NCBI GenBank assembly: GCA_027021705.1
Contig: JALUTT010000048.1
Coordinates: forward strand, 64,001-128,000
Source: Anaerolineae bacterium
GTDB lineage: Bacteria > Chloroflexota > Anaerolineae > S140-20
Reading direction: 5' to 3'
DNA length: 64,000 bases
A program made the position numbers and the translations under genes. Of the stretch, positions 1 to 26,027 are shown piece after piece (the first letter of the stretch is position 1; every line of letters begins with the position of its first letter). The notes below the pieces were generated by a model. It was not told where the DNA came from, searched no databases, and saw only the letters and a program-made list of their open reading frames with translations.

Positions 1-1698
1 GGGTCCCAGCGGATGCGCGTCTTTAAGCTCGCCTTTCTGGCCCACCGCTTCTACAATTCGACCAATCCCGATGAGCGAGTGGCAGCTATCGCCGATATGG
101 GAGAAGAGATTGCCCGCTTCGACACCTACCTGGTGGGCCTGCGGAACGGCGATCCCGATCTGGGGCTTCGACCGGCGACCAACGCGGCGGTGATAGATGC
201 CCTGGAGCGAAGTGCCGAGGCCTGGCAGCGATACCGGGAGACCCTGATGGACTATCTGGCGGTCCAGGACCCCGACAAGATGTTTGAGCTCCTGGGGCGG
301 ATAGACAATCAGGCCCGCCCGTTAGTGACCCAGGTAGACGCCGTTGTGCAGGCCCTGGAGGTCCAGGTTCAGGCCGATGCCCATCATAGCCAGGTCTTGC
401 TGGGGATTGCCCTGGCGTTGGGCTTGCTGGTGATGGTCGGCGCTTCTCTGACCATCCGGATGATCGGCCGTGACCTGACCCAGTTGACTATGGCCGCTGA
501 GCAGATGGCCGGCGGTGACCTGAACGTGCGGGCGGCAATAGTTCACCAAGACGAGATCGGCATCATCGGGCAGACGTTGAACCGAATAGTTGCGCGCCTG
601 AAACAGACGCTGGAAGGGCTGGAACAACGGGTGGCCGAGCGTACTCGGGAACTGGAGCGCCACTCTGCCTATCTGGAGACCTCGGCCGAGGTGGGCCGTG
701 CAGCCACTTCGATCCTGGATATGGAGAGGCTGATCCACCAGGTGGTTGAGATGATCCGCGATCGCTTTGGCCTTTACGCCGTGGACCTCTTCCTGGTGGA
801 CCCGACGGGAGAGTGGGTGGAGGTGCAGGCCAGCGCCAGTGGGCCGGGCCAGGAGGTGTCGGCTCAGGAGAGACGGCTGCGGGTTGGGGAGGATTCGACG
901 GTGGGCTGGAGCATCGCCAATGCTGCGATGCGGGTCACGCCGGTGGAACGACCCGGTGATGTCGCCGAGGCGGTCCTGCCCCTTCACTTTCGGGACCAGG
1001 TATTGGGCGCGTTGAGGGTTCGGAGCCTGCAACCTGACCTCTTTGATCAGGACTTCACCACCGTGTTGCAGACGATGGCCGATCAGATCGCCATCGCCAT
1101 TAGCAATGCCCGTCTCTTCCAACAAGCTCAAGCGGCCCTGGAGGCGGAGCGTCGGGCCTACGGGGAGATCAGCCGGGAGGCGTGGGCTCAGGTGCTCCAG
1201 GCCCGACCCGATTGGGGATACCTATGCACTGCCCACGGCCTCTACCCGACCGATGGCCCGTGGTCTCCAGAGATGGTCCAGGCCAGGCAGACGGGCCAGA
1301 TCGTCCAGAACGATGGGGAAGTCGTAGCCGTGCCGGTAAAGATTCGAGGGCAGGTGGTGGGCGCGGTGCGGTTCCGCAAGCCGAAGCAAGCGGGAGGGTG
1401 GACGACGGACGAACTGACGCTGGTGAAGACGCTGACGGAGCAGTTGGGGGTGGCCCTGGAGAGTGCCCGCCTGTACCAGGATTCCCAGCGTCGGGCCCTC
1501 CGAGAGCGGCTGACGGGTGAGGTCACAGCCCGCATCCGCGAGACATTGGACCTGGAGATGATGCTGAAGACGGCCGCGCAAGAGGTTCGCCAGGCCCTGG
1601 GGCTGCCGGAGGTAGTGATCCGGCTGACGGGCCAACCGGGCAACGGTGCCGGAACCGGGGACGTGGCTTCTGGGGCCACGGAGGAGGTGGAGCCGTGA
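1..1698 (+). CDS. Membrane sensor: NarX/PilJ-like extracellular domain, TM, HAMP, GAF, truncated GAF, half-GAF tail; no output domain (5' partial)
   Basis: Frame is open from base 1 and reads GSQRMRVFKL, resembling the NarX/PilJ P-box (AG-S-x-R-M). TM segment VLLGIALALGLLVMVG, HAMP (DEIGIIGQTLNRIV) and GAF end motif QTMADQIAIAISNARL follow. Confidence 0.8.
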   Translation, partial: GSQRMRVFKLAFLAHRFYNSTNPDERVAAIADMGEEIARFDTYLVGLRNGDPDLGLRPATNAAVIDALERSAEAWQRYRETLMDYLAVQDPDKMFELLGRIDNQARPLVTQVDAVVQALEVQVQADAHHSQVLLGIALALGLLVMVGASLTIRMIGRDLTQLTMAAEQMAGGDLNVRAAIVHQDEIGIIGQTLNRIVARLKQTLEGLEQRVAERTRELERHSAYLETSAEVGRAATSILDMERLIHQVVEMIRDRFGLYAVDLFLVDPTGEWVEVQASASGPGQEVSAQERRLRVGEDSTVGWSIANAAMRVTPVERPGDVAEAVLPLHFRDQVLGALRVRSLQPDLFDQDFTTVLQTMADQIAIAISNARLFQQAQAALEAERRAYGEISREAWAQVLQARPDWGYLCTAHGLYPTDGPWSPEMVQARQTGQIVQNDGEVVAVPVKIRGQVVGAVRFRKPKQAGGWTTDELTLVKTLTEQLGVALESARLYQDSQRRALRERLTGEVTARIRETLDLEMMLKTAAQEVRQALGLPEVVIRLTGQPGNGAGTGDVASGATEEVEP

Positions 1699-3422
1699 GG
1701 GACCTCAACAAGCTTCAAGCCATATCCACAGAGGTACAGGCTCCTGATGAGGGAGAGCAGGGAGGAGGGCTTGGGAAGATGCCGCTCTTTGAAGAGGTGA
1801 CATCCTTTCCTCCCTTCCTGCTCATTGTGGTCTTCATCGTCCTGGTCTCCGAGGCGATCGTGAGCCTTCTGTTCGCCAGCCTGCCCGTGCAGGGAGTGCT
1901 TGCCCGGCTCGTCCTTCACACCTTGGTGCTGATCGGACTGATCAGTCCCGTTCTCTACCTACCGGTGGTCCGCCCGCTCGTCCGGCGGATGGCCGAGTAC
2001 AGGCAGATGGTGGAGAGGATGCAGCGGTTCGTTAATGCCGTTGAGCAGGCAGCCGAAGCCATCGTTATCACCAACCGCGAGGGGGTGATCGAGTACGTCA
2101 ATCCCGCCTTTGAGCGGGTCACGGGCTATCGCGCAGAAGAGGCGGTGGGGAAGACGCCGCGCATCCTGAAATCGGGCCAGCACCCGCCGGGGTTCTACGA
2201 GAAGCTCTGGGAGACCATCACCGCCGGCGAGGTCTTCCAGGCCGTCTTCGTGAACAGGCGGAAGGATGGGGAGCTATACTACGAGGACCGGATGATCGCC
2301 CCGATGAGGGATGCAAAGGGACAGATCACCCACTTCATCGCGACGGGCCGGAACATCACCCGGCGCAGGGAGTTGGAGGAGCGGCTGAACGCGGTCTACC
2401 GGCTGGGCCAGGAGCTGACGTTGCTCCACGACGAGGCGGCCATCATCTATCGAGCGCTGGAGGCTGCTGTCCAGGTGCTCCGGTGCGAGATCGCCGGCTA
2501 CGCCTCGGTGGACGAGACGACGAAGACGCTGACCTATCATTACCGCTTGATCCAGGGTCAGGTCGAGGCGGTCAGCTTCTCCCTGCCCCTGACCGCCAGG
2601 GAGGAGATCGGGGTGATCGCCGCCCAGAGCGGTCAGATCGTCAGGACCTCTGACGTGAGCTCCGACACCTCCTTCGCGCTCGTTCCGGAGGCGCTCTCCC
2701 ATCGTGCTGGGTTGTGTGTGCCGATGAAGGTAGGAGGACAGGTGATCGGTGTGTTGGGTGTCGCCAGATTTGAACCGGAGCCCTTTACGGCAGCCGACGA
2801 ACGGTTGCTACAGACCTTGGCCGACCAAGCTGCCGTGGCTCTGGAGAATGCCCGGCTTGTTGCCGAAGCCCAGGAGGCCCTGGAGGCCCTGCGCCGTGCT
2901 TACGGCGAACTGAGTCGGGAGGCCTGGGCCGGCTTGCTCCGCGTCCGGCCCGACCTAGGCTTCCGAAGCACGGAGCAGGGGGTTACCAGCGCGGAGGATG
3001 TGTGGCGACCAGAGATGGAAGAGGCCATCCGGGAGGGGAAGACGGTTCAGGCCAACGGTACCGGTGGGGATACCCGGCTCCCCCTCGCCATCCCCATCAA
3101 GGTACGAGGGCAGGTCGTGGGGGTGTTGGACACCTACAAGCCCAATGACGCAGGCGTGTGGACTCCGGAGGAGGTCACGCTGCTGGAGACGATCGCCGAG
3201 CAGTTGGGTGTGGCCCTGGAAAGCGCCCGGCTGTTCGAAGAGACCCGGCGTCGGGCCTGGCGGGAGCAACTCATCAGTCAGATCACCGCCCGCATCCGGG
3301 AAGCCAGCGATGTCGAGGGGGTGTTGCGGACGGCGGCCGAGGAGCTGGGCAGGGCCTTGAACGCTGCCCGTTCCCACGTCGCCCTCCAGGTGCCCGAAGA
3401 CTCGGAGTCCGCAGGTTCGTGA
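1695..3422 (+). CDS. 2-TM, PAS, GAF, truncated GAF, half-GAF tail sensor; no output domain
   Basis: GTGA overlap with the upstream stop. PAS IEYVNPAFERVTGY..PRILKSGQH..NRRKDG; GAF LCVPMKVGGQVIGVL..LADQAAVALENARL. Confidence 0.85.
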   Translation: MRDLNKLQAISTEVQAPDEGEQGGGLGKMPLFEEVTSFPPFLLIVVFIVLVSEAIVSLLFASLPVQGVLARLVLHTLVLIGLISPVLYLPVVRPLVRRMAEYRQMVERMQRFVNAVEQAAEAIVITNREGVIEYVNPAFERVTGYRAEEAVGKTPRILKSGQHPPGFYEKLWETITAGEVFQAVFVNRRKDGELYYEDRMIAPMRDAKGQITHFIATGRNITRRRELEERLNAVYRLGQELTLLHDEAAIIYRALEAAVQVLRCEIAGYASVDETTKTLTYHYRLIQGQVEAVSFSLPLTAREEIGVIAAQSGQIVRTSDVSSDTSFALVPEALSHRAGLCVPMKVGGQVIGVLGVARFEPEPFTAADERLLQTLADQAAVALENARLVAEAQEALEALRRAYGELSREAWAGLLRVRPDLGFRSTEQGVTSAEDVWRPEMEEAIREGKTVQANGTGGDTRLPLAIPIKVRGQVVGVLDTYKPNDAGVWTPEEVTLLETIAEQLGVALESARLFEETRRRAWREQLISQITARIREASDVEGVLRTAAEELGRALNAARSHVALQVPEDSESAGS

Positions 3423-3509
3423 TGCGGTTCTCCTGGGCTTGCCAGCGTGGCGATCCGGCGGGTGGGGAGATCGCGGATTGACCCGGAGCACCGGAAGAAG
3501 GTACAGGGT

Positions 3510-5243
3510 ATGACGATGCAAGAAGAGATCCAGGAGCTGCAGGTAGAACTGGCCGCATGGCGCGAACGATTGGTTCGCGGTCTGTTGCGCGCCAGCCTGG
3601 TGGTGGGGGCTCTCGCCCTGGTCGCCGGCCTGATCAACGCCGTCACGGCTCGGGCCGTTCTGCTGGTCGTCATCTACGTGGCGGCCTACCTGGCGATGCT
3701 GGTCATCACCTTTGCCTCCCGTCTGCCCTACCTCCTGCGGGCCGGCGTCTTCCTGTTCCTCCTCTACGGGTTGGGGCTGGTGGGCCTGCTGGAAAGCGGG
3801 CTGAGCGGCGATGGACGGGTCTTCCTGCTCACCTTCCCCGTCGTGGCGACAGCCCTCCTGGGCCAGCGGGCCGGCATAGTCAGCCTGGGGCTGAGCCTGG
3901 TGACCCTGATAGGGGTGGGATGGGGGATGACCACAGGACTCCTGGACATCTCTGTGGAACAGATGGCCAACTCCACCGATCCCACCGCTTGGTTCAGCGG
4001 CAGTGTGGTCTTCTTGCTCCTGGCCCTGGCGATGCTTATCCCCACCGCTCACCTCTTGCGGGGGCAGGTCTTTGCCGCCCAGTTTGCCCGGCAGAACCGG
4101 GCCCTTCAGGAGGCCCAGGCCGCCCTTGCCGAAGTCCACCGCCAGCAGGAGGAGGCCAACGAGCGGTTGCGCCAGGCGCTGGAGGAGAGCGCACAGCGGG
4201 CTGGTCAGCTTCAGGTCATCACCGAATTGAGCCACGCCATCGCTCAGATCCGGGACCTGGATCGCCTGCTGTCGGAGGTCACCCACCTCATCGCCGATCA
4301 CCTGGGCTTCTACCACGTCGGCATCTTCCTGCTGGACGAGTCCGGTCGTTACGCGGTGCTCCAGGCAGCCAACAGTGAGGGTGGACAGCGTATGCTGGCC
4401 CGGGGGCACAAGCTGGAAGTTGGCGTTCAGGGCATCGTCGGGTACGTTACGGGGACGGGGAGACCCCGCATCGCCCTGGACGTGGGGGCCGATGCTGTCC
4501 ACTTCGATAACCCCGATCTGCCGGAGACCCGTTCGGAGGTGGCCCTGCCCCTTCGGATCGGGGAAGAGGTGATCGGGGCGTTGGATGTGCAGAGCAAAGA
4601 GACGGCGGCCTTTACCCAGATGGACGTCGTCGTCCTGCAGATGCTGGCCGATCACGTAGCCATCGCCATTGAGAATGCCCGGCTTCTCCGGCGGGTTCAG
4701 GAGGCGCTGCAGGAGGCCCGGGAGGCCCAGCGGCGCTACGTGGAGCGGGAGTGGTCGCTCTACCTCCGGCGTAGGCCCCGCCTCGAGGCCGCCTATGTGC
4801 CTATGGCCGCCCCGTCAGAGCCACCGCCGCGCACCGCTATTGAAGAAGCCCTGCGTAAAGGGGAGATGGTAGCCCTCTCGGGTGACGGTCGCCCCGCCTT
4901 CCTGGCCGTGCCCATCAAGCTGCGGGGGCAGGTCATCGGGGTCATAGACCTGCAGACAGCCGAGGAGGGCCGTCCCTGGACCGAGGATGAGATCGCGCTG
5001 GTCCGGGCCATCAGTGATCAGATGGCCTTGGCCCTGGAGAACGTGCAGCTCTTTGAGCAGACGGTGCGCCGGGCCGAGCGGGAGCATCTGGTCACCCAGA
5101 TCAGTGGGAAGATCCGCGCCTCGACCAATCTGGAGGCGATTGTGCAGACGGCTGCTCAGGAGCTGGCGCGCGCCCTGGGGACATCGCGGGTCCTGGTCCG
5201 CCTGGGGGTGGAGGAGGATGGGAAGCGGGGCATTGAGGGGTGA
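3510..5243 (+). CDS. Multi-TM membrane sensor with GAF, truncated GAF and half-GAF tail
   Basis: About 6 hydrophobic helices, then GAF GFYHVGIFLLD..TRSEVALPL..IGALDVQS. Start uncertain (GTG 3447, ATG 3510 or 3516). Confidence 0.8.
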   Translation: MTMQEEIQELQVELAAWRERLVRGLLRASLVVGALALVAGLINAVTARAVLLVVIYVAAYLAMLVITFASRLPYLLRAGVFLFLLYGLGLVGLLESGLSGDGRVFLLTFPVVATALLGQRAGIVSLGLSLVTLIGVGWGMTTGLLDISVEQMANSTDPTAWFSGSVVFLLLALAMLIPTAHLLRGQVFAAQFARQNRALQEAQAALAEVHRQQEEANERLRQALEESAQRAGQLQVITELSHAIAQIRDLDRLLSEVTHLIADHLGFYHVGIFLLDESGRYAVLQAANSEGGQRMLARGHKLEVGVQGIVGYVTGTGRPRIALDVGADAVHFDNPDLPETRSEVALPLRIGEEVIGALDVQSKETAAFTQMDVVVLQMLADHVAIAIENARLLRRVQEALQEAREAQRRYVEREWSLYLRRRPRLEAAYVPMAAPSEPPPRTAIEEALRKGEMVALSGDGRPAFLAVPIKLRGQVIGVIDLQTAEEGRPWTEDEIALVRAISDQMALALENVQLFEQTVRRAEREHLVTQISGKIRASTNLEAIVQTAAQELARALGTSRVLVRLGVEEDGKRGIEG

Positions 5244-5358: not shown

Positions 5359-5384
5359 GTGTACTATAGGAAGGGGAGACAACG

Positions 5385-6659
5385 ATGTTCCGAAGTGCCC
5401 GAACGATGAGGTTGCTGGTCGTTCTGTTCCTGCTCCTGCCTTTCGTCAGCGCTTGCCGTTCGGAACCACCGCCGCCGGCCGAGGTAACGATCGGGGTGAT
5501 CTACCCCTTCAGCGGGAGTCTGGAGGCCACAGGGGCTGACATCCGCCATGGCATCGAACTGGCCGTTGAGATCATCAACGGGGAGTTCAAGCTGGAGATG
5601 CCCCTGGCCTGGACGGCGGGCCTCCCCAACTTGCGGGGGGCGAAGGTGAAGGTCATTTACGCCGACCACGCAGGCGATCCCGACCAAGGAGTCGAGGCAG
5701 CCCGGCGGTTGATCGAGGAGGAGAAGGTGGTGGCTCTGGTGGGGTGCTACAACAGTAGCGTGACCGCTCCCGTCAGTCAGGTGGCCGAGGCGGCCAGTGT
5801 GCCCTTTTTGAACCCCGACTCCACGTCGCCCACCCTGACCCAACGGGGGTTCCGCTGGTTCTTCCGCACCACCGCCGATGATGCTATCTTCGTGCGCAAC
5901 TTTTTCGACTTCCTGGCCGATCTGCAGCAGGAGCGGGGCATAGCCCTCGGTTCGGTAGCCATCGTCTACGAGAACACCCTCTTTGGCACCGGCGTCGGGC
6001 AGTTGGAGCGCCGGTACGCCCAGGAGGCCGGACTCAAGGTCGTGGCCGATGTCCCCTACTCGGCCAACGCGACCAGCGTGGAGGCCGAGGTCCAGCGGAT
6101 CATCGCTTCCGGTGCCTCCCTGGTGATGCAGAGCTCCTACGCCCAGGATGCGATCCTGTATATGCAGACCTACAAGGCGATGGGCTACCGTCCCCAGGCG
6201 CTCCTGGCGATGGATGCCGGCTTCATCAGCCCGGTCTTCATCGAGACGCTGGGGGACGATGCCAATTACATCCTCAGCCGGGAGGTTTGGGCTCCAGACC
6301 TGGGGGAGACCCGGCCCCTGATCCGTCAGGTCAACACGCTCTTCCGGGGGCGCTACGGGACCAATATGACGGGCAACTCGGCCCGCGCCTTCACGGGCCT
6401 CATCGTCCTGGCCGATGCCATCAACCGGGCCGGCTCGACAGAACCCGAGGCTATCCGCCAGGCCCTTCTGGAGACCGACATCCCGGCCGAGCAGTTGATC
6501 ATGCCCTGGAAGGGCGTCCGTTTCGATTCCGAGACCGGTCAGAACACCCTGGCCCAGGGCATCATCGTCCAGATTCAGGACCGGGCTTACTACACCGTTT
6601 GGCCCTGGGACCTGGCAACGCGGGAGTTGATCTGGCCGATGCCCGATTGGGAGGAGTGA
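5385..6659 (+). CDS. LivJ/LivK-like amino-acid-binding lipoprotein (no permease adjacent)
   Basis: Lipobox VSAC; TIGVIYPFSG; VALVGCYNSSVT; FFRTTADD. SD-like aggaagggg upstream. Confidence 0.85.
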   Translation: MFRSARTMRLLVVLFLLLPFVSACRSEPPPPAEVTIGVIYPFSGSLEATGADIRHGIELAVEIINGEFKLEMPLAWTAGLPNLRGAKVKVIYADHAGDPDQGVEAARRLIEEEKVVALVGCYNSSVTAPVSQVAEAASVPFLNPDSTSPTLTQRGFRWFFRTTADDAIFVRNFFDFLADLQQERGIALGSVAIVYENTLFGTGVGQLERRYAQEAGLKVVADVPYSANATSVEAEVQRIIASGASLVMQSSYAQDAILYMQTYKAMGYRPQALLAMDAGFISPVFIETLGDDANYILSREVWAPDLGETRPLIRQVNTLFRGRYGTNMTGNSARAFTGLIVLADAINRAGSTEPEAIRQALLETDIPAEQLIMPWKGVRFDSETGQNTLAQGIIVQIQDRAYYTVWPWDLATRELIWPMPDWEE

Positions 6660-6662
6660 GCG

Positions 6663-9960: not shown

Positions 9961-10013
9961 CCCCATGAGTTGTCGTTTTGCCGGGAGTTGTACAACAAAA
10001 GGAGGCGCGGAAA

Positions 10014-11543: not shown

Positions 11544-11561
11544 GCATAGGAGAACCAGAAT

Positions 11562-16373: not shown

Positions 16374-16454
16374 TCCCGGAGTCCTCGTCCTGGTGTGGTG
16401 AGCCGAGGACAAGAGTAGGAAGTTCAGAGTTCTGAGGTACAGGTGAGGGGAAAA

Positions 16455-19400
16455 ATGGCCGACTCAACCCACTCAGCCCACCCACAAGACCTCCTCGACC
16501 GGCTCCTGTCCATCGTCGCTGGGATAGACGAGGGGGAGCAGCGTGAGGCCCTGCAGCAGCCGTTGGAGGCGCTGCGGAAGGCGCTTGCCGTCTCCTCGGA
16601 TCGGAGCCGTCGCCTCTACGAGGCCAGTCGGGCGATCAGCCTGGCCGCCGATATGGCTGAGGTGGGACGGGCTCTGATGGACTTCATCGCGACCTGTGAC
16701 GTGGATGTGGGCCGGCTCTTTCTCTTCCGGGCGGATCCGTCTGGTGAGCCGGTTGAGATCGAGATGCGCGAGGGATGGAAGCGGAGCGGTGAGCCCTCTC
16801 AGGTTCCCTACGGCACCCGTTTCCCGCTGGCCGATTACCCTCTGCGTGAGGCTATGCAGCCTGACCAGGTCTTCATCTGCTCCGATGTGGGGACGGATCC
16901 CCGGTTGAATGAGACCATCCGGGCGATGATGCTCGCCTCCGAACTGCACTCCTTCATCATCGTCCCGATGACGGTGGAGAGGCGGTGGTTGGGTGCCATT
17001 CTCGTAGGACGGGAGGTCCCCTCCACGTATGATGAAGGGTTGGTCTACGCCCTCTGGACGCTGGCCGGACAGGCTGCGGCCACGCTGGAGAACCGCCAGC
17101 TCCTGGCCGACTTCCAAGGAACAGCCGAGCAGATGGTCCTGCTCAACCAAATCCTCCAGACGGCTACGACGACCCTAGACCTCCGGGAGGCCCTCGATTC
17201 CATTGCCCGACAGACGGCCCTGGCGCTGAACAGGATGTGCGGCATCTTTCTTCTCGAGGAAGATGGCGAGCACCTGCGGGTGGGCTGCTTGTGGGGACCC
17301 GATGGCCATACCCACACGTCTGAGGAGGCCCTCGTCTTCCCTCTCTCAGAGAATCCCGGTATGGAGGCAGCCGTTCGGGAGCAGAAGACCCAGGTCCTTG
17401 ACCAGGTTCAGACCCGTGCCCGGGGAACAGCCCGCCACCTGGCCCAACTCTCCCGGGCGGAGACGGCCGTCTACGCCCCCTTGCTGACCCGAGAGCGTGT
17501 GGTGGGGGTGCTGGAGGTCTCCGCCCCCGTCGGCCATCCCCCCTTCACGCCGGAGCAGATCGGCACGGTCTCCACCATTGCCCGCCAGATGGGTATCGTG
17601 GTGCAGAATGCTCGACTCTTCCAGGAAACCCAGGCCGCTCTGGAGGAGACAGACCTGCTCCTGGAGACCAGCCGGGCCCTGGCCCTCGCCCTGACCCCCC
17701 AGGAGGTGGCCGATCTCCTGGCAGAGCGCTTGATGGCCACAGGCGTTGACCGTTGTAGCGTGGTTCTCTGCGATACCTACGGAGAGGATGGGCTCCCTCA
17801 GTGGGCGGAGGTGATGGCCATCGGCGACGTGGACCCGGAGAGGCGAAAGCTGGGCCTGCACTACCGCTATCCCATCGAAACCTACCCTACGATACAGAAG
17901 TTCCTCCGTGCTCCAGAAGCCTTCGTGGTGACCGATGTGCGCACCGATCCCCGCCTCACCGAGGAGGAGCGAATCTATATGGAAAATATCGGGGGGGTGG
18001 CTTTCATCGCCGTCCCGATGGTGCGCCGGGGACAGGTCCTGGGCTACATCTTCGCCGAACACAGCCATCCCTATACCTTCAGTCAGCGGGAGCTTTCCCT
18101 GTACCAGGCGATGGCCGATCAGGCAGCCGTGACGCTGGCCAACATGCGTCTCTTCGAGCGGGTTCAGCAAGGGTGGCGCGAGACCGAGGTCCTCTATCAG
18201 GTTGGCCGCTCCTTGGTCGCTGCCTCTTCCTTGGAGGAACTGCTGGAGTGTGCGGCCCAACCGGCCATCGAGGCAGGGGCGTCGGCCGCCAGCCTCTACC
18301 TCTTCGACCCGAATGAGGCGGAGCAACCGGAGTGGGGCATCCTGGCCGCCCACTGGCAGCGCGAGGGTGATCCTCCCTTCCCCGTGGGTACTCGGCTCTA
18401 CTTGGCCGATTTCCCCTTCACCCAGCTCTTCCTGGCGGATCCCCAGACCCCTTACCTGATCGGGGATATGGAGGCGGCCGAGCAGGTGGATGAGACTACC
18501 CGGGATGTGGCCCTGCAACTGGGGGTGCGAGCGCTGGTTGTCATCCCCTTGGTGACCCGGGAGCGTCGGATTGGTATCCTGGCCATTCCCTGGGATGAGC
18601 CCCACCAATTCAGTGAGGAAGAGGAGCGGCTCTATCGGGCGCTGGGACCGTTGGCAGCGCCGGTCACGGAGAGCTTGCGCCTACTGGAGGACACACGGCG
18701 TCGGGCACTCCAGTTCCAGACCGTGACGGAGGTTGCCCAGGCGGCCAGTACCATCCTGAACCTGGATGAGTTGCTCTCCCAGTCGGTGGAGTTGATCAGG
18801 GAGCGCTTTGACCTCTACTATGCCGGTATCTTCCTGGTGGATGAATACGGGCAGTGGGCGGTGCTGCGGGCGGGCACCGGCGAGGCCGGCCGGGCGCAGA
18901 TCGAGGCCGGTCACCGGCTGGAGGTGGGGGGCAACTCGATGATCGGCTGGTGCACGGCCCACGGAAAGCCCCGGGTAGCCCTAGACGTGGGGAAGGAGGC
19001 CGTGCGCTTTGAGAACCCCTACCTGCCCGATACCCGCTCGGAGATGGCCCTGCCCCTCATCAGCCGGGGGCAGGTGATCGGTGCGATGACCATCCAGTCC
19101 ACCCAGGTCGCTGCCTTCACCGACGAGGATGTCACAATCCTCCAGGCTCTGGCCGACCAGTTGGCCGCGGCCATTCAGAATGCCCGTCTCTTCGAGCAGA
19201 CCCAGCAGGCCCTGCAGGAGGTCAGCCGGGTTCACCAGCGTTACATCCGTGAGGCCTGGGAGGAGTACACAGCCCATCGTCAGCGTCCGACAGGCTACTT
19301 CCTGGGCCCCGACGGCATCACGGCTGCCGACGTCTGGCGACCGGAGATGGCCTTGGCGGTGGAGCGGGAGGACCTGCTGATCCTCTCCGAGGCCGACGAC

Positions 19401-22400
19401 GAAGTAGTTGGCGGGAAGAACGGAGATGAACGCCCCAAGGCAGCCCTGGCTGTGCCCATTAAGCTGCGCGATCAGGTGATCGGGGCGCTGGACTTCTTCG
19501 AGCCCGATGAGGCCCGGGAATGGGATGAGGATGACATCGCCATCGTAGAGGCGGTGGTGGATCAGGTTGCCCAGGCTCTGGAGAGCGCCCGCCTCTTCGA
19601 GAAAACCCAGACCCAGGCCAGCCGGCTGGCCCTCCTGAACGAGATCACAGCCCGCCTGAGCACGGCCCTGGATCGGGATGAACTCTTCCGTATCTTGAGT
19701 CAGGAACTGGGCCGCATCCTTCCTTTCCACCAGCTCCACATCGCCCTCTACGACCCTCAGCGGGATTCCGAGCACTGCCGGCTGATCCCTCTAGGGAAGG
19801 AAGCCTTCCACGCGGTGCAGACCTTCCCCGTCGAGGATAGCCTGATGGGAGAGGTGTTGCAGAGCGGTCGTCCTCTGTTGTTGAAAGACCTCGCCCTCTC
19901 GTCGGAAGAGATGGGGTCGAACCACCAAGACCGCCGCTATCTCCTCCAGACGGGCGTTCGCTCGGCGATCTTCGTCCCCCTGGGAACCCATGGGCGCCAA
20001 CTAGGGGTGCTGAGCGTGGGCCATGCAGAGGCCGGCTTCTACACCCAGGATGACCTGGCCCTCTTCCAGCAGGTTGCTGCTCAGGTGGCCGTTGCCCACG
20101 AGAACGCCCGCCTCTTCCACGAGACGCGGCGTCGGGCCCGTCAGTTGCAGGACCTCTACGATGCCGGGCTTGCCCTCTCCTCCATCGCCTCGCTGGAGGA
20201 GGTGATGGAGCGGGTTGCTCAAGCGGCTCAGAAGCTGACCCAGGCCAGCCTGACCACGGTCTTCGTCTACGATGAGGACCTGGGTCGCTATCGTCGGGCC
20301 GCCGCGGCCGACGCGCCGGAGCGGCTGGCCTCCTCGCCGGTCATCTACCCCCGTCGGGGAGGCTTCACCGACAAGATCGCCCGCAGCGGTCGCCCCCTCG
20401 TCGTCCCCGATGTCGAGGCCGATCCCGACGTGAACCCGGGTGCTCTGGAGTCGGGGATGCACTCCCTGGTGGGAATTCCGATGCAGATGATGGGACAGGA
20501 GGCCATCGGGGTCATCTTCTGTGCCCATACCGAGAAGCATTACTTCACCGAGGAGCACGTGGAGACCCTCTCCTTCCTGGCCGTCCAGGCGGCGATCGCG
20601 CTGCAGAACGCCCGATCCTTCGCCCAAGTGGAACGCCGGCGGCTGCAACTGGAGACCGCGGCCGAGGTCGCCCGGGTGACCACCGCCGTTCTGGACCTGG
20701 ACGAGCTGCTGGAGCGGACGATCAGCCTGCTCCAAGAGCGGTTTGGCCTCTACTATGCGGGCATCTTCCTGCTGGACGAGACGGGGTCGTGGGCGGTGTT
20801 GCGGGCCGGAACCGGAGAGGCTGGTCGTCGGATGGTGGAGCGTGGACACCGGCTGCAGGTAGGCGGCAATTCGATGATCGGCTGGTGCACGGCCCATGGA
20901 GAGCCCCGCGTGGCCCTGGACGTGAGCAAGGAACGGGTGCGCTTCATCAACCCGCTGTTGCCCGACACCCGCTCGGAGATGGCCCTGCCCCTCATCAGCC
21001 GGGGGCGGGTGATCGGCGCGATGACCATCCAGTCCGATCAGACCGAGGCCTTCTCCCGGGCCGACGTCGCCACCATCCAACTGATGGCCGACCAGTTGGC
21101 CAACGCCATCGAGAACGTCCGGCTCTTCCAGGAGACCCAGACCAGCCTGGTGGAGACCGAGGCCCTCTATCGGGCCAGCCGGCGGGTGGGGGAGGCCCAG
21201 TCCATCGAAAGCGTCCTAGAAGGTGCGGCAGAGTTGGCCGAGGTTCTGATCCCGGAGGCCGGCAGCATCTCCATCAGCCTGATTACCCGCTGGGACGAGG
21301 CCGGAGAGCCGACGGCTGCCGACATTCACGTCCTCTCCCTGGGCACGGGCCAGCGGATCCCGCTGCCGACCCTCACCGATTTTCCCATCACCGATCGGGA
21401 GACGGCGAGGATGGTCCTGGGCGAGCCCGAAGCAGTCGTCATCTACGCCGATGCCGACGATCCCACCTGTTCTATGCCCGAGGAGGTGCGGGAGGTGATG
21501 CACAACAGCGGCACCCGGGGAATGGTCACGCTGGGCCTGCTCGCCCGAGGCCGCTCCTTGGGATTCCTCTCCTTCAGCAGTTCGGCGCCACTCACCGAGT
21601 TCCCGGAACGTCACGTCCGGCGTCTCCGCACCCTGGCCGACCAGATCGCGGTGACCCTGGACAACCTGCAGCTCTTCCGGCAGACTACGGAGGCGCTGGA
21701 AGAGACCCAGACCTACTATGACATCAGCCGGCAACTGCTGGAGGCCCAGACGGTGGAAGAGGTGCTGGCGGCTGCGCTGGCCTTTCTGCAGGAGCCGGAT
21801 GTGGACAGTGCCAGCATCTTCCTGGTGGGTGGACCGCCGGAGGCCCTATGGCTGGAGCGGGTTGCGGTCAAGGGCATTCGGGAGAGGACCGAAGCCCCGC
21901 TGGGCGATCGGATCCCGATGGACCTGTATGGACTAGATCGCCTGCTCGCTCCCGGTCGTACGGTTGTGGTCGAGGATGTGGCCCGCGATACCCGGATTAC
22001 GGAGCCGCTGCGGGAGATGTTGACAGAGTTGGGAAAGCGGGCCGTCGTCTTCGTGCCGATGCAGACGGGGCAGCAGCTGGTAGGGACTTTGCTGGTTGCC
22101 CAAAACTATCCCTACCGCTTCTCCAAACGTCAGATCCGGCTCTACGAGGTTGTGGCGGCCCAGACATCGGTAGCCTTGGAGAACCGGCGCCTGCTGGAGG
22201 AGACCCGACGGCGGGCCGTCCAGTTGGAGGCAGCGGCCAAGGTGGGGCGTTCGGCCACCTCCATCCTGGAGCGCGAGCAACTGCTGCCGGCCGTCGTCGA
22301 GTTGATCCGCGACCACTTCGGCTACTACCACGCTCAGATCTTCCTGATAGACGAGACGGGGCGGTGGGCGGAACTCCAGGCCAGCACCGGTGAGATCGGC

Positions 22401-24242
22401 AGGATATTGCTGGAGCGAGGACATGCTCTGGAGGTGGGCAGCGACTCGGTGATCGGCTGGGTGACCCGTTATGGGCAGCCCCGCGTCGCCCGCGTGGGCG
22501 AGGACCGGGTTCACTTCCGCAACGAACTCCTGCCTGATACCCGGGCCGAGTTGGCCATCCCTCTCATCCTGGGAGGCCGCGTCATCGGAGCCTTGGATGT
22601 GCAGAGCACCGACCCCGAAGCTTTCGGCGAGGACGAGGTCGCGGTGCTTCAACTCGTGGCGGACCAGATCACCATCGCCATCGAGAACGCTCGCCTCTAC
22701 GACGAGCAGAAGCGGGTGGCCGAGAAGCTGCGCGAGGTGGATCGGCTGAAGTCTCAGTTCCTGGCCAATATGTCCCACGAGTTGCGGACACCGCTGAACT
22801 CCATCATCGGCTTCTCGCGGGTGATCCTCAAGGGCATTGATGGTCCCCTCACCGACCTGCAGCGGCAAGACCTGGAAGCGATTCACAACAGTGGTCAACA
22901 CCTGCTAGGGTTGATCAACGACATCCTGGACCTCTCCAAGATCGAGGCAGGTCGGATGGAGCTGGTCTTCGAGGAGGTCAACCTCTACGACATCATCGAA
23001 GGCGTGATGGCGACGGCCAAGGCGCTGGTCAAGGACAAGTCCATCGAGCTGCGCAAGGAAGTTGCCGAGGACCTGCCGACCATTATCGCCGACGGCAAGC
23101 GGATCCGTCAGGTGATGCTCAACCTGCTCTCCAATGCGGCCAAGTTCACCGAAGAGGGATACATCTGCTTGCGAGCCCAGGCCGACGACCGCTACGTGAC
23201 CATCAGCATCGAGGACACCGGGATCGGTATCCCGCCGGAGAAGCACGAGGAGATCTTCCAGGAGTTTACCCAGGTGGATGCCTCTACGACACGCCGTTAC
23301 GCGGGAACGGGCCTGGGGCTGCCCATCAGCCGCCACTTCGTCGAGATGCACGGCGGGCGGATCTGGGTGGAGAGCGAACTGGGGAAGGGTTCGACCTTCT
23401 ACTTCACGCTGCCCATCCGTGGACCCAAGCAGGAGGAGGAGCCTTCTGAGGGCGAGGGTGTGGCCGTAGAGGTGGGGAAGAAGCTGATCCTGGTGGTAGA
23501 TGACGACGAGAGCGTCATCACCCTCTACAAGCGCTATCTGGACAAGCGTGATTACCAGGTCGTTGGCCTGACAGAGAGTCAACAGGCACTCCAGTGGGCG
23601 ATGAACCTGAAGCCCTATGCCATCATCCTGGACATCCTAATGCCGCGCAAGGATGGCTGGAGTGTAATCCAGGAATTGAAGTCCACGCCGGAGACCCGGG
23701 ACATTCCCGTGATCATCTGCAGCATCGTGGGTGATACCGGTCGGGGCTTCAGCTTGGGGGCTGCTGACTACTTGGTCAAGCCGATTATGGAAGACGAACT
23801 GCTCAATGCGCTGTCCCGGCTAGACGGACAAGCCCAAGAGAAAGTCCTGATCATTGACGACAACCCTGACGACATCCAGTTGCTGCGCCGCATCCTGGAG
23901 GAGGGGCAGGGGTGCATGGTGCTGGAGGCCAGCAACGGTGCTGACGGCATCGCCCTGATCCAGGCCGAGCGTCCTAATCTGGTCATCTTGGACTTGATGA
24001 TGCCGGAGGTGGATGGCTTCGCCGTGTTGGAGGCGGTTAAGGCCAATCCCTCTACTCGGGATATCCCTATCATCGTGGTGACGGCGAAGGACCTCTCCGA
24101 AGAGGATCGCCAACGGCTTGCAGGACGCACCATCTCTCTGTTGCAGAAAGGGATCTTTCAGCAGGAGGAGCTGCTCGAGGATGTGGCTGAGGCTTTGGCC
24201 CGGTTGACGGCTAACCAATCCCGGTCCCAAGAGCAGGCGTAG
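16455..24242 (+). CDS. Giant cytoplasmic hybrid histidine kinase: 12 GAF units, HisKA, HATPase, two REC
   Basis: H-box FLANMSHELRTPLNSIIG; N-box NLLSNAAKFT; G1 DTGIGI; G2 GTGLGL; REC motifs DILMP and DLMMP. No TM segment evident. Confidence 0.95.
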   Translation: MADSTHSAHPQDLLDRLLSIVAGIDEGEQREALQQPLEALRKALAVSSDRSRRLYEASRAISLAADMAEVGRALMDFIATCDVDVGRLFLFRADPSGEPVEIEMREGWKRSGEPSQVPYGTRFPLADYPLREAMQPDQVFICSDVGTDPRLNETIRAMMLASELHSFIIVPMTVERRWLGAILVGREVPSTYDEGLVYALWTLAGQAAATLENRQLLADFQGTAEQMVLLNQILQTATTTLDLREALDSIARQTALALNRMCGIFLLEEDGEHLRVGCLWGPDGHTHTSEEALVFPLSENPGMEAAVREQKTQVLDQVQTRARGTARHLAQLSRAETAVYAPLLTRERVVGVLEVSAPVGHPPFTPEQIGTVSTIARQMGIVVQNARLFQETQAALEETDLLLETSRALALALTPQEVADLLAERLMATGVDRCSVVLCDTYGEDGLPQWAEVMAIGDVDPERRKLGLHYRYPIETYPTIQKFLRAPEAFVVTDVRTDPRLTEEERIYMENIGGVAFIAVPMVRRGQVLGYIFAEHSHPYTFSQRELSLYQAMADQAAVTLANMRLFERVQQGWRETEVLYQVGRSLVAASSLEELLECAAQPAIEAGASAASLYLFDPNEAEQPEWGILAAHWQREGDPPFPVGTRLYLADFPFTQLFLADPQTPYLIGDMEAAEQVDETTRDVALQLGVRALVVIPLVTRERRIGILAIPWDEPHQFSEEEERLYRALGPLAAPVTESLRLLEDTRRRALQFQTVTEVAQAASTILNLDELLSQSVELIRERFDLYYAGIFLVDEYGQWAVLRAGTGEAGRAQIEAGHRLEVGGNSMIGWCTAHGKPRVALDVGKEAVRFENPYLPDTRSEMALPLISRGQVIGAMTIQSTQVAAFTDEDVTILQALADQLAAAIQNARLFEQTQQALQEVSRVHQRYIREAWEEYTAHRQRPTGYFLGPDGITAADVWRPEMALAVEREDLLILSEADDEVVGGKNGDERPKAALAVPIKLRDQVIGALDFFEPDEAREWDEDDIAIVEAVVDQVAQALESARLFEKTQTQASRLALLNEITARLSTALDRDELFRILSQELGRILPFHQLHIALYDPQRDSEHCRLIPLGKEAFHAVQTFPVEDSLMGEVLQSGRPLLLKDLALSSEEMGSNHQDRRYLLQTGVRSAIFVPLGTHGRQLGVLSVGHAEAGFYTQDDLALFQQVAAQVAVAHENARLFHETRRRARQLQDLYDAGLALSSIASLEEVMERVAQAAQKLTQASLTTVFVYDEDLGRYRRAAAADAPERLASSPVIYPRRGGFTDKIARSGRPLVVPDVEADPDVNPGALESGMHSLVGIPMQMMGQEAIGVIFCAHTEKHYFTEEHVETLSFLAVQAAIALQNARSFAQVERRRLQLETAAEVARVTTAVLDLDELLERTISLLQERFGLYYAGIFLLDETGSWAVLRAGTGEAGRRMVERGHRLQVGGNSMIGWCTAHGEPRVALDVSKERVRFINPLLPDTRSEMALPLISRGRVIGAMTIQSDQTEAFSRADVATIQLMADQLANAIENVRLFQETQTSLVETEALYRASRRVGEAQSIESVLEGAAELAEVLIPEAGSISISLITRWDEAGEPTAADIHVLSLGTGQRIPLPTLTDFPITDRETARMVLGEPEAVVIYADADDPTCSMPEEVREVMHNSGTRGMVTLGLLARGRSLGFLSFSSSAPLTEFPERHVRRLRTLADQIAVTLDNLQLFRQTTEALEETQTYYDISRQLLEAQTVEEVLAAALAFLQEPDVDSASIFLVGGPPEALWLERVAVKGIRERTEAPLGDRIPMDLYGLDRLLAPGRTVVVEDVARDTRITEPLREMLTELGKRAVVFVPMQTGQQLVGTLLVAQNYPYRFSKRQIRLYEVVAAQTSVALENRRLLEETRRRAVQLEAAAKVGRSATSILEREQLLPAVVELIRDHFGYYHAQIFLIDETGRWAELQASTGEIGRILLERGHALEVGSDSVIGWVTRYGQPRVARVGEDRVHFRNELLPDTRAELAIPLILGGRVIGALDVQSTDPEAFGEDEVAVLQLVADQITIAIENARLYDEQKRVAEKLREVDRLKSQFLANMSHELRTPLNSIIGFSRVILKGIDGPLTDLQRQDLEAIHNSGQHLLGLINDILDLSKIEAGRMELVFEEVNLYDIIEGVMATAKALVKDKSIELRKEVAEDLPTIIADGKRIRQVMLNLLSNAAKFTEEGYICLRAQADDRYVTISIEDTGIGIPPEKHEEIFQEFTQVDASTTRRYAGTGLGLPISRHFVEMHGGRIWVESELGKGSTFYFTLPIRGPKQEEEPSEGEGVAVEVGKKLILVVDDDESVITLYKRYLDKRDYQVVGLTESQQALQWAMNLKPYAIILDILMPRKDGWSVIQELKSTPETRDIPVIICSIVGDTGRGFSLGAADYLVKPIMEDELLNALSRLDGQAQEKVLIIDDNPDDIQLLRRILEEGQGCMVLEASNGADGIALIQAERPNLVILDLMMPEVDGFAVLEAVKANPSTRDIPIIVVTAKDLSEEDRQRLAGRTISLLQKGIFQQEELLEDVAEALARLTANQSRSQEQA

Positions 24243-24244
24243 GT

Positions 24245-24300
24245 CCCCGCCGAGGTGGGAAAGGATAGCATCGTTGTGCTTCCACCCCGCCGAGGTGGGA
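24245..24300 (+). repeat. 16-bp direct repeat x2 (ccccgccgaggtggga)
   Basis: Exact copies at 24245-24260 and 24285-24300 in the kinase/PLP-enzyme intergenic region. Confidence 0.8.
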
Positions 24301-24362
24301 TCTACCGGCAACTGGACCTTATCCCCCAAAAGTGCGCGCGGAAGGAAGGAGTCAAAGAAGCC

Positions 24363-26027
24363 ATGGGCAAGAATCACTTTTGGCTGAAGTGCCCGCAATG
24401 CGGCCATCGTTTCCTCTACAAAGGGCTCGTAACAGCCTGCCCTCGTTGCAGCCACGCCTGGCTGGACGTCGAGTACGATTACGACGCTCTGGCCCCCCGT
24501 CTGCGCCAACTGTTGGAGAGCCGCCCCTTTACCAGCATGTGGCGGTATCGGGAACTGCTCCCGGTGCTCCACGACGAGAACATCGTGACGATGGGGGAAG
24601 GCGGAACACCGCTGCTCCACAGCCAGCATCTGGGAATGATGCTAGGGCATCCCTACATCTACGTGAAGGACGAACGGCAGGGACCGACGGGCTCCTTTAA
24701 GGATCGTCAGGCTTCCCTGGCTATCTCCCTTATGAAGGAGAACGGGATCACAGAGGGTGTATTGGCTTCGACGGGCAATGTTGCCATCTCCTACTCCGCC
24801 TACTCAGCCCTGGCCGGCATCAAGCTCTGGGCCTTTGTCACCAGCACGGTGCCGGCCGACAAGATGCGCGAGGTTGCCCTCTATGGCACGGAGGTGATCA
24901 AGGTTACGGCGACCTACGATCAGACCAAGGAAGTGGCGGCCCGCTTTGCTCAGCACAAAGGGCTCTACCTGGATCGAGGCATCCGCGCTTTTGCCAGCCG
25001 ACAAAGTATGAAGACCATCGCCTACGAGATCGCTGAGCAGTTGGGCTGGCGGGCCCCCGACTGGTACATCCAGGCCGTCAGCGGGGGCCTCGGCCCTGTC
25101 GGCGTCTGGCAGGGCTTCGAGGAACTCTACCGGATGGGGCTGATCCCCAACCTGCCCAAGCTGGCCAGCATCCAGGTGACCGGCTGCGCCCCGATGGTCC
25201 ATTCCTTCCGCAAGGGGCTGGCCGAGGTGGAGCCCGTGCTCAACCCGCAGACCCTCATCGCTACGGTGGCGACGGGTAATCCAGGACCGGCCTATCCCTT
25301 CCTGCGGCGCGTCGTGCTGGAGCACGGAGGGGCCTTCGAAGAGGTCACCGACGAAGAAGCGTTCCGGGCGATGCGGGTGATGGCCCGAATGGAAGGGCTT
25401 TCTATGGAACCGGCTGCCGCTATGGCTTTCGCCGGTCTCTTCAAGCTGATCCAGAAGGGGATCATCCGTAAGGATGAGATCGTCGTCGTCAACTGCTCGG
25501 GTCACACCTTTCCCGTGGAGAAGCACCTGCTGGACGAGGAGTGGGTCCACAGCCTGGAACTGCCCTCGGAAATGGTCGCCGAGCCAGGGCCGGCTGTTCT
25601 AAAGGAAGAGGGGCTTCTGGCCTCGCTGGAACGGCTGGACGACCGGGTGCGGAGTGTGGCCATCATTGACGATGAGCCCGATGCCGTCCGCCTGCTGCGG
25701 CGGATCATCCAGGCCAAAGGCGGCTACCAGATCTACGAAGCCTATGATGGTCGCCAGGGCCTCCAGCTCATCCGCGAGAAGCGGCCTGACCTGGTGCTGC
25801 TGGACCTGATGATGCCGGGGATGGACGGCTTTGCCGTCCTGACGGCGATGAAGGAGGACCCTCAGATCGCGACCATCCCGGTGATCGTCATCACGGCCAA
25901 GGACCTGACCACTCAGGAACGGCGTTGGTTAAGCGGGAAGGTGGAGTCCCTGCTGCAGAAAGGATCCTACATGGACCTGGATGCCCTGGATGCGCTGGTT
26001 GGCGAGCTCTCGACGGCGGTAGGCTGA
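24363..26027 (+). CDS. Threonine-synthase-like fold-type II PLP enzyme fused to a C-terminal receiver domain
   Basis: CPQC..CPRC ribbon; GEGGTPL; PLP-lysine motif PTGSFKDR; ASTGN; EPAAA; then REC IIDDEPD..LLDLMMPGMDG..ITAKD. Confidence 0.88.
   Translation: MGKNHFWLKCPQCGHRFLYKGLVTACPRCSHAWLDVEYDYDALAPRLRQLLESRPFTSMWRYRELLPVLHDENIVTMGEGGTPLLHSQHLGMMLGHPYIYVKDERQGPTGSFKDRQASLAISLMKENGITEGVLASTGNVAISYSAYSALAGIKLWAFVTSTVPADKMREVALYGTEVIKVTATYDQTKEVAARFAQHKGLYLDRGIRAFASRQSMKTIAYEIAEQLGWRAPDWYIQAVSGGLGPVGVWQGFEELYRMGLIPNLPKLASIQVTGCAPMVHSFRKGLAEVEPVLNPQTLIATVATGNPGPAYPFLRRVVLEHGGAFEEVTDEEAFRAMRVMARMEGLSMEPAAAMAFAGLFKLIQKGIIRKDEIVVVNCSGHTFPVEKHLLDEEWVHSLELPSEMVAEPGPAVLKEEGLLASLERLDDRVRSVAIIDDEPDAVRLLRRIIQAKGGYQIYEAYDGRQGLQLIREKRPDLVLLDLMMPGMDGFAVLTAMKEDPQIATIPVIVITAKDLTTQERRWLSGKVESLLQKGSYMDLDALDALVGELSTAVG

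Follow-up and report, generated by a model that had tools for sequence, protein, structure and literature searches.

A cluster of output-less sensors, kinases and a ThrC-receiver fusion

The DNA analysed here is a stretch of 64,000 nucleotides (the window; C48:64001-128000) from the 5.19-Mb, 183-contig assembly of a hydrothermal vent bacterium of the Anaerolineae (Chloroflexota). The window contains in its positions 1-26027 the 3' 26 kb of a gene cluster of about 43.5 kb (C48:46576-90027). The 19 genes of this cluster lie on one strand and encode ten sensors without an output domain, two histidine kinases, one free receiver and one fusion of a threonine-synthase-like enzyme with a receiver domain (ThrC-REC). 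This signalling layout recurs in many Anaerolineae and is apparently unstudied. In the following, G000 is the genome studied, G001 and similar labels are comparison genomes, L numbers are fetched loci, and positions given without a contig are those of the window.

The window holds ten cluster genes on the + strand (g1 to g10), with spacings of -4, 24, 141, 3, 0, 87, 18, 69 and 12 bp. Their assignment is based on Pfam, complemented by an alignment of the sensor C-termini (g1, g3 and g5), a scan for transmembrane (TM) segments (g2 and g8), NCBIfam (g4 and g10) and matches to solved structures (g6 and g7). The sensor g1 (1..1698) contains a PilJ/NarX-type four-helix bundle, a HAMP domain, a GAF domain, a reduced GAF domain and a short terminal stub; its 5' end is cut by the window edge, and the full protein of 631 residues starts 198 nt before the window, at C48:63803. 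The sensors g2 (1695..3422; 575 residues) and g3 (3447..5243; 598 residues) carry the same GAF, reduced GAF and stub behind three predicted TM segments with a PAS domain and behind a MASE11 membrane input, respectively. Then, g4 (5385..6659) encodes a periplasmic binding protein (Peripla_BP_6) that is probably the ligand-binding partner of the next sensor, g5 (6663..8933; 756 residues; dCache_1, HAMP, GAF, reduced GAF and stub). A binding protein and sensor pair of this type is present in G001 too, as reciprocal best matches. Two terpene genes follow, both accessory insertions: g6 (8934..9890), which encodes an Rv3378c homolog with no Pfam match, and g7 (9978..11543), a class II diterpene cyclase with squalene-hopene cyclase and terpene synthase folds. 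The sensor g8 (11562..16373; 1603 residues) has six predicted TM segments, distantly MASE6-like, eight GAF domains and the stub. The cluster ends with g9 (16443..24242), a cytoplasmic hybrid kinase of 2599 residues with the architecture 12 GAF-HisKA-HATPase-REC-REC, and with g10 (24255..26027, with a likely start at 24363), the ThrC-REC fusion, in which a threonine-synthase-like enzyme of the pyridoxal phosphate (PLP) type (PALP) carries a C-terminal REC.

The window edge cuts the cluster, and the same-strand run extends 17.4 kb further upstream. The upstream part encodes, all on the + strand, a stand-alone receiver (C48:46576-46959), the dCache-HAMP-GAF-HisKA-HATPase kinase u1 (904 residues), a ParA-like ATPase, a dCache-HAMP-GAF-GAF sensor (920 residues), a six-TM GAF-GAF sensor, a dCache-HAMP-GAF sensor, a soluble, output-less 4-GAF protein that is counted as a sensor, and a multi-TM HAMP-GAF-GAF sensor (984 residues). 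A multi-TM DUF6989 protein of 219 residues is encoded between two of the sensors (C48:53946-54605, or L001:9946-10605) and has a clear homolog in the cluster of G005. A 317-residue open reading frame (ORF) that overlaps its gene (L001:9666-10619) was considered as a second g6-like gene; it is not a g6 paralog and represents a spurious frame rich in Arg, Gly and Pro. The upstream boundary of the cluster is an inositol-1-phosphate synthase gene on the opposite strand.

An earlier note, made from the letters of the window alone, had described ten co-directional and mostly tightly spaced genes, five of them sensors with different inputs and without kinase, cyclase or helix-turn-helix (HTH) output. 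The gene list is correct, with all genes on the + strand, gaps of -4 to 141 bp and agreeing Pfam architectures, and the description of the sensors holds as well. Two other statements of the note result from the cut at the window edge: that only one kinase is present, and that the sole separate receiver is part of an enzyme fusion. The u1 kinase and the stand-alone receiver lie upstream of this edge. The cluster genes are presumably co-transcribed; among the sequencing runs listed for positions 6001-16000, none is of RNA. No terminator-like site lies between them (three such sites were found in 20 kb, against 10.3 expected), and the promoter and terminator scans give only chance-level matches inside the cluster.

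The inputs of the ten sensors are mutually unrelated (dCache, four-helix bundle, PAS, MASE11, multi-TM or none), and all ten sensors end alike, in a GAF domain, a reduced GAF domain and a stub of about 55 residues. No kinase, cyclase, phosphodiesterase or HTH model matches the five sensors of the window, whose last 85 residues are clean even at E <= 5. Likewise, no catalytic or DNA-binding model matches any of the ten, and no unassigned stretch in them is long enough to conceal such a domain. A GAF profile built from the cluster and run over all ORFs of the genome detects 195 GAF domains in 78 ORFs. Most of these proteins (64 of 78) continue for at least 189 residues after the last GAF domain, which leaves room for an output domain. 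The ten cluster sensors stop 59-74 residues past it. All ten stub proteins of the genome are in the cluster, and beyond it only four other ORFs, all small, stop so close after the last GAF domain (within 7-68 residues).

The alignments of the ten C-termini and of 69 sensors from many species reveal one common module. It consists of the end of the full GAF domain, a long linker with an 'AW' motif, the reduced GAF domain (profile positions about 64-145 only), the stub with the consensus ALENARLxEETQRRAxRERxxxxITxxxRxxxDxxxILQTAVxELGxAL, and a short low-complexity tail. The stub is conserved in the 69 sensors, from dozens of species, at 16-52% identity. It matches positions 2-27 to 2-30 of the cluster-built GAF profile and, weakly, positions 1-26 to 1-31 of Pfam GAF (E 0.003-0.09 in four of the ten tails scanned). 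The stub is the start of a further GAF domain, cut after the first helix and strand.

Two other views of the stub were abandoned. A degenerate DHp/H-box is ruled out, since the stub matches the start of the GAF profile and the linkers between the GAF domains of g9. Split-GAF complementation, in which the stub would complete the first GAF domain of the next protein, was rejected because the first GAF domain of g9 appears to own its N-terminal helix: its profile match begins at position 20 of the hidden Markov model, and the preceding residues resemble, by eye, a typical GAF start. Most sensors also precede proteins that start with TM segments, which counts against complementation.

The C-terminal 340 residues of g2 were modelled with AlphaFold from the 69-row alignment (pLDDT 90). 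The model starts with a GAF domain, followed by a 52-residue helix, a small domain of four strands and one helix, a 46-residue helix and a 15-residue helix. In Foldseek it matches best the regulatory segments of PDE2A/5/6 and CyaB2, which are dimeric tandem-GAF structures (E 6.5e-10 to 3e-9), with low TM-scores (0.35-0.40) because the relative domain orientation differs.

The module is also found within the kinases. Residues 753-1103 of g9 form an internal GAF, reduced GAF and linker module, where a complete GAF domain follows. This segment shares 49-55% identity with internal modules of other cluster kinases and 43-45% with the C-termini of stand-alone stub sensors from other species. Because the stub module also sits inside the kinases, the sensors look like the input arm of these kinases minus the transmitter. 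The transmitter of g9 is well preserved (Pfam HisKA 5.3e-22, HATPase_c 7.6e-32), and the kinase core is 61-74% identical across 45 orthologs. In the 46 aligned cores (g9 and the 45 orthologs), the His of SHELRTPL and the glycines of DTGIGI/GGTGLGL are invariant, and one of several invariant Asn columns may be read as the N-box Asn. As a separate observation, the sole Hpt-domain gene of the genome (G000:C34:22257-22538) adjoins a 3-GAF histidine kinase (C34:22607-25084), far from the cluster.

Conservation, enzyme output and the candidate route of signals

Different Anaerolineae families share the frame of sensors, multi-GAF hybrid kinase and ThrC-REC. Among 40 relatives of the same class, representing 38 families, a search with g10 finds full-length ThrC-receiver fusions in 13, and the neighbourhoods of ten ThrC-REC carriers were fetched. 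Full clusters are present in G001, G005, G012, G033 and G011. In G001, which belongs to the same family as G000, the order is receiver, GAF-kinase, ParA, nine stub-type sensors with the binding protein among them, 8-GAF hybrid kinase and ThrC-REC. The sensors number at least ten in G012, at least 12 in the 40 kb fetched from G005, at least four in G033 and two in G011. In G031 and G016 the ThrC-REC gene is separate from the kinase. The largest array seen is in G005 (C1:24000-75000), where about 19 high-scoring stub modules stand in a row over about 50 kb beside the kinase and ThrC-REC.

The identities between G000 and G001 are 47% for the u1 kinase, 62% for ParA, 36% for the binding protein, 44% for g5 (over its full length), 60% for the C-terminal part of g9 and 69% for g10. 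The interior sensors match through their GAF modules only, and therefore the input repertoire seems to turn over quickly on a fixed chassis.

A pattern scan with one genome per species identified at least 585 stretches encoding ThrC-REC. The best 80 of these loci, from other species, were examined and all belong to Chloroflexota (Anaerolineales, Thermoflexales, Ardenticatenales, Aggregatilineales and Caldilineae). In 63 of the 80 loci the gene directly upstream of ThrC-REC encodes a kinase; of these kinases, 61 have GAF domains and 55 are of the hybrid type. The upstream flank of up to 10 kb contains one or more stub sensor genes in 38 loci and a ParA gene in ten, a count that the length of the flank limits. 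Directly downstream of ThrC-REC, 35 loci carry a REC-kinase.

The co-occurrence of the components was followed in 41 genomes with a profile of the stub module (A3) and one of the kinase core (A4), with thresholds set after the gaps in the scores had been seen. The A3 scores are bimodal: the best E is at most 3e-35 in 13 genomes and at least 1e-24 in every other. With A4, 14 genomes score at least 318 bits and the next matches at most 303 bits. Stub sensors occur in 13 of the 14 genomes with a kinase ortholog and in none of the 27 without it, counts that are descriptive only. The conserved co-occurrence on which the earlier note had made its reading depend is found. Relative to ThrC-REC, both are present in 12 genomes, ThrC-REC only in two (G016 and G026), stub sensors only in one, and neither in 26. 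The stub-only genome, G027, is 84% complete and carries the kinase. Wherever contigs are long, the high-scoring stub modules are on the contig of ThrC-REC or of the kinase.

The protein g10 combines a PALP domain (4e-64) with a Response_reg domain (4.2e-22), and its N-terminus has a CxxC...CxxC zinc ribbon. It keeps the PLP lysine of GSFKDR and the ASTGN loop. In an alignment of nine ThrC-REC proteins, 54-72% identical across families (A1), the GSFKDR Lys and the receiver Asp, Thr and Lys are invariant, the receiver residues of g10 being D437, D481 (LLDLMMP), T511 and K533. Between this receiver and the second one of g9, the identity is 48%. The closest solved proteins to g10 are the threonine synthases 2zsj, 1uim, 6cgq and 2d1f (E 1.5e-49 to 5e-43). 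Further ThrC homologs, at about 35% identity, are encoded in the genome. The protein g10 is a specialised paralog. Second, diverged ThrC-REC paralogs, 50-55% identical to g10, are found in G012 (C91:13147-17059), G002 (C133) and G001 (C136); that of G012 adjoins its own kinase and a stub-like ORF. Neither ThrC-receiver fusions nor arrays of output-less GAF sensors are described in the literature searched, which leaves most subscription journals outside its scope.

An EamA-family membrane protein, confirmed by Pfam on one example, is encoded within 5 kb downstream of ThrC-REC in 45 of the 80 loci. The E. coli proteins RhtA and EamA are amino-acid exporters of this family, and the frequent neighbour suggests the export of an amino-acid-like product. 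In the window, a type II restriction-modification pair (DNA methylase, 26221-27573; BsoBI-like endonuclease, 27577-28818; GC 0.56-0.61) occupies the slot where relatives carry the REC-kinase and/or the EamA exporter after ThrC-REC. It is preceded, 3' of g10, by a near-consensus promoter (TTGACA-17-TACAAT, 26141-26169, 11 of 12 positions). The remainder of the window contains housekeeping genes. It also holds two overlapping ORFs with no Pfam match and 69-70% GC (32824-35910 on the - strand, 1028 residues, and 33271-35094 on the + strand, 607 residues) and, at 61494-63250, an AAA_21/AAA_15 (AbiEii/OLD-like) ATPase followed by a 192-residue ORF without family, which may be a small defence pair. 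No Rfam match is present in the window.

The reading that we favour, with moderate confidence, is that many stub sensors feed shared kinases and that the output passes through a phospho-controlled ThrC-like enzyme. Each sensor would be a dimeric receptor in which a helical GAF spine takes the place of the transmitter. The state of the sensor would then be passed on by association with the homologous GAF/helix module of the shared kinases, g9 and perhaps u1, and many inputs would set one kinase activity. Subsequently, g9 would phosphorylate the receiver of g10 and so switch a PLP-dependent amino-acid reaction directly, not via transcription. The end product may be an exported amino-acid-like compound, as an EamA-type exporter stands beside the enzyme in most relatives. 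We infer that sensor and kinase touch, that g9 passes its phosphate to g10, that the enzyme activity responds and that the product is exported; for the phosphotransfer, the evidence is the adjacency of the two genes and the identity of their receivers given above. GAF domains are said in PMC8199190 to dimerise via N- and C-terminal helices as parallel coiled coils. Together with the shared module, this makes a heteromer of sensor and kinase a reasonable mechanism. The many-to-one reading draws on gene order, co-occurrence and homology, and all comparative results are compatible with it.

Several findings weigh against it. The compared genomes are relatives, and the co-occurrence counts overstate their independence. 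The complete genome of G016 has kinase and ThrC-REC without stub sensors, and the sensors are therefore an optional elaboration. In G031 the sensors and the giant kinase are on another contig than ThrC-REC. Many kinases beside sensors carry TM segments and presumably own inputs: by crude TM calls, sensors lie upstream of 25 of the 33 TM-bearing kinases, and of eight of the eight TM-less ones. A complementary pattern, in which TM-less kinases have sensors and TM kinases none, was dropped, since the loci are too few and such TM calls too imprecise. The GAF count of the kinase does not follow the number of sensors. A hybrid kinase would classically reach a terminal receiver through an Hpt protein, and the single Hpt gene of the genome is outside the cluster, on C34. 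On the output side, g10 scores below the NCBI threonine-synthase cut-offs (262.3 vs 303 for NF006050; 163.6 vs 167.1 for TIGR00260), so a threonine-synthase reaction is not assignable to it, and the EamA ortholog of this genome is on contig C97, apart from the signalling genes. Counting neither for nor against the reading, the prediction of a complex of two kinase DHp-CA cores and two stub modules gave a score of 0.00 against a mark of 0.32, with the partner's own fold uncertain.

The sensors may instead act as antagonists or decoys of the kinases. As truncated paralogs of the kinase input arms, they would hold the kinases in non-productive heteromers until a ligand binds, with an inhibitory logic for which RetS, the inhibitory partner of GacS, is the model. 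We regard this as unlikely, yet the first alternative to keep in mind. The sensors are homologous to the GAF, reduced-GAF and linker module of the kinases and are cut where a further GAF domain and then the transmitter would follow; they have no His-containing DHp, and they co-occur strictly with the kinase family. On the other hand, the roughly 19 sensors in the one array of G005 seem many for pure inhibitors. The sign of the regulation is not readable from sequence, and the contact that the decoys require is as inferential as the one required by the favoured many-to-one reading.

Somewhat less probable is an array without any signalling from sensors to kinases. The sensors would then have the ParA-like ATPase or other proteins as partners, for example in localisation or in a membrane scaffold, or would buffer a GAF ligand, and their clustering with kinases would come only from shared regulation or duplication history. 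The recurrence of the ParA-like gene in the clusters speaks for this view, and G016 and G026 show that the pair of kinase and ThrC-REC works without sensors. PMC8199190 adds that GAF domains bind ligands in other proteins. Against it stand the low number of loci with ParA, even allowing for the short flank, the absence, in the 41 genomes, of any stub sensors without an orthologous kinase, and the case of G031, where the sensors stay with the kinase though ThrC-REC is elsewhere.

The terpene genes within the cluster

The protein g6 matches the Rv3378c structures 3wqk/4cmv of the PDB over residues 9-294 (E 6e-23), at about 30% identity. The Rv3378c family is that of the tuberculosinol synthases and tuberculosinyl-adenosine transferases. 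From the DGT(R/Q)RWF motif g6 keeps the Asp, which we take to be the catalytic D34 of Rv3378c. The best solved relative of g7 is the 501-residue cyclase 6vpt (E 1.3e-66), presumably Rv3377c, and plant copalyl-diphosphate synthases come next. The motif of g7 is DLDDT, against the DxDTT-type of 6vpt. The order, transferase and then cyclase, is that of the mycobacterial locus. Homology at about 30% does not fix the product of g6 and g7 as a tuberculosinyl or halimadienyl compound or as a terpene nucleoside.

Homologs of g6 are rare, with 12 clusters in a word-indexed protein collection. One, from a Chloroflexi metagenome-assembled genome, is 93% identical, and for several the JGI name is tuberculosinol synthase or adenosine tuberculosinyltransferase. 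A six-frame search detects g6-type homologs in 22 of 401 sampled Chloroflexota genomes, and in 12 of the 24 genomes of the Anaerolineae family f36. The transferase-first pair, with both genes, occurs in three of the five Chloroflexota loci examined; in larger stretches, both genes are present in G310, G193 and G364, and the gene set of G093 has the cyclase only. According to a study from 2024 (PMC11476799), its authors' initial efforts to find orthologs outside mycobacteria failed. In the literature searched here, from which most subscription journals are missing, no paper mentions Rv3378c together with 'Chloroflex'.

In family f36 the two genes belong to an operon (loci L119-L122: G310:C3, G093:C8, G193:C20 and G364:C12) that encodes, in order, an Acetyltransf_6-like protein of 345 residues, the Rv3378c-like protein, the class II diterpene cyclase, a six-TM PAS-HisKA-HATPase kinase, a single receiver and a GT87 glycosyltransferase, the last checked by Pfam in G364 only. 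The core of cyclase and then kinase is present in all four genomes. The gene set of G093 lacks the Rv3378c-like and acetyltransferase-like ORFs, and that of G310 has no receiver match after the kinase. The six-TM domain of the f36 kinases and the N-terminal domain of g8 are homologous (hhalign probability 96.3%, E 1.6e-9, 176 columns). Closer copies of the g8-type TM domain head the hybrid kinases of the ThrC-REC clusters L109, L107 and L043, which are free of the terpene cassette; the domain is therefore not exclusive to the cassette. The same input domain drives a DHp-CA transmitter in one lineage and a GAF-stub in another, which gives indirect support to the view that the stub replaces the transmitter. 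The simplest reading is that the cassette and its sensor input domain arrived together and that the input was joined here to the GAF-stub module of the array.

The segment g6-g7-g8 is a later, lineage-specific insertion. The terpene genes are absent from all 80 ThrC-REC loci and from G001, G005, G011, G012 and G033, and in G001 the g5 ortholog directly precedes the giant kinase, without the terpene insertion. A low-GC, strain-variable patch (10500..12090; GC 0.46-0.58) covers the 3' two thirds of g7 and the TM-encoding 5' part of g8. Contigs of two other vent metagenomes (runs X2 and X3) diverge within this patch, at the same length, and a minor variant matches the window. The X2 contig, which stems from an independent study, runs from g4 through g5 and g6 into the 5' part of g7, and therefore the placement is no assembly chimera; the g7-g8 junction is bridged only by the probable source run. 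A promoter-like site with 10 of 12 positions lies inside g7, upstream of g8 (11122-11150).

These results bear on the possibility that the cluster is a chemoreceptor-like array in which terpenoid synthesis is an integral and conserved part, close to what the earlier note proposed when it described small-molecule synthesis as embedded in the system. In its favour are the tight position of g6-g7 inside the cluster (gaps of 0, 87 and 18 bp), confirmed across g5-g6-g7 by the X2 contig, and the f36 cassette, which always stands beside a receiver and a histidine kinase with a TM domain homologous to that of g8. The proposal is nevertheless improbable. None of the 80 loci and none of the five genomes with a full cluster, same-family G001 included, has the terpene genes; GC content and strain variation mark a recent insertion; and no MCP (methyl-accepting chemotaxis protein) signalling domain, CheW or CheA is present. 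The link is a local one, between the cassette and the single sensor g8; the terpene genes are an addition to the array and not a property of it.

That the sensors are decaying kinase remnants of a GAF-rich genome, as the 195 GAF domains might suggest, and have no collective function is very hard to credit: all ten reading frames are intact and stop at one structural position, the 69 aligned sensors keep the stub, and the frame is syntenic between genera.

Implications and comparison with known systems

If the many-to-one reading is true, a whole bacterial class pools many environmental inputs in an unstudied way. One kinase would collect the signals of receptors that lack a transmitter, and the pathway would terminate in a metabolic enzyme and an exporter, not in a transcription factor, which would extend the known designs of two-component signalling. 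The cluster is a test case for how GAF/helix spines relay signals between proteins. Close relatives of both genes of the tuberculosis lipid 1-tuberculosinyladenosine (1-TbAd) exist in environmental Chloroflexota, linked there to membrane sensor kinases, and bear on the origin of the mycobacterial locus and on the role of such lipids outside a host.

A bolder picture can be drawn, and we consider it doubtful. Mixed assemblies of sensors and multi-GAF kinases, positioned by ParA, would be a third machine of many receptors and one kinase, after the chemoreceptor arrays and the stressosome. Their direct output would be the control, by phosphorylation, of a PLP enzyme that makes an amino acid; its product would leave the cell and perhaps act as a signal among the cells of these filamentous bacteria. 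The sensor g8 would be tuned to a self-made terpene lipid, possibly a terpene-nucleoside, from the adjacent cassette. The pairing in f36 would then amount to an autoinducer circuit based on a lipid, and the environmental counterparts of the 1-TbAd genes would serve in signalling.

The cluster has the features of two-component systems: the kinase has the H-box His and the G-boxes, and the receiver of g10 has the phospho-acceptor Asp, the acidic pair, the Thr and the Lys. Response regulators with an enzyme output are represented by CheB, PleD/WspR and RpfG. Like these, g10 joins a receiver to an enzyme, whereas its receiver is C-terminal. With the bacterial threonine synthases g10 shares the fold-type II PLP domain and the GSFKDR lysine and differs from them in falling below the equivalog cut-offs.

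The locus of Rv3378c-Rv3377c, which makes 1-tuberculosinyladenosine, resembles g6-g7 in the full-length match of g6, the conserved Asp and the gene order. It differs in the level of identity, in the DxDTT-type motif and in the host, here an environmental vent bacterium.

The regulatory segments of PDE2A/PDE5/PDE6 and of the cyanobacterial CyaB2 have, as the sensors do, two GAF-type domains joined by long helices. Their last helix enters a catalytic domain, whereas the stub sensors end about 55 residues later.

RetS-GacS is a case in which one sensor controls another sensor kinase by direct heteromeric contact via homologous domains, a contact proposed here for the stub sensors. Unlike the stub sensors, which have none, RetS keeps transmitter domains.

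GAF accessory proteins of histidine kinases are described in two papers: NreA, which acts with NreB/NreC (PMC8199190), and CvnF8, with CvnA8 (PMC13343842). They share with the sensors a GAF-only cytoplasmic module, the lack of an own output and the position beside a histidine kinase gene. In contrast, NreA and CvnF8 are single, small and soluble proteins, and here up to ten, elsewhere about 19, large receptors have their own inputs and a shared stub.

The stressosome is formed by RsbR paralogs, RsbS and the kinase RsbT, and its paralogous sensors are thought to gate this single kinase. It has in common with the cluster the variable N-terminal inputs and the one conserved C-terminal module. The cluster lacks STAS domains, as its C-termini are of the GAF type, and a Ser/Thr kinase, and its sensors are mostly membrane proteins.

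The chemoreceptor arrays consist of MCP, CheW and CheA and are positioned in some species by the ParA-like ATPases ParC/PpfA. As in the cluster, receptors with diverse inputs share one cytoplasmic module and are encoded beside a kinase and a ParA-like ATPase, with HAMP between the membrane and the module. On the other hand, Pfam scans of the cluster proteins find no MCP signalling domain, CheW, CheA, CheR or CheB. The module of the cluster is a tandem GAF with a stub, its kinase is a hybrid kinase of the HisKA type, and its output is an enzyme and not a motor.

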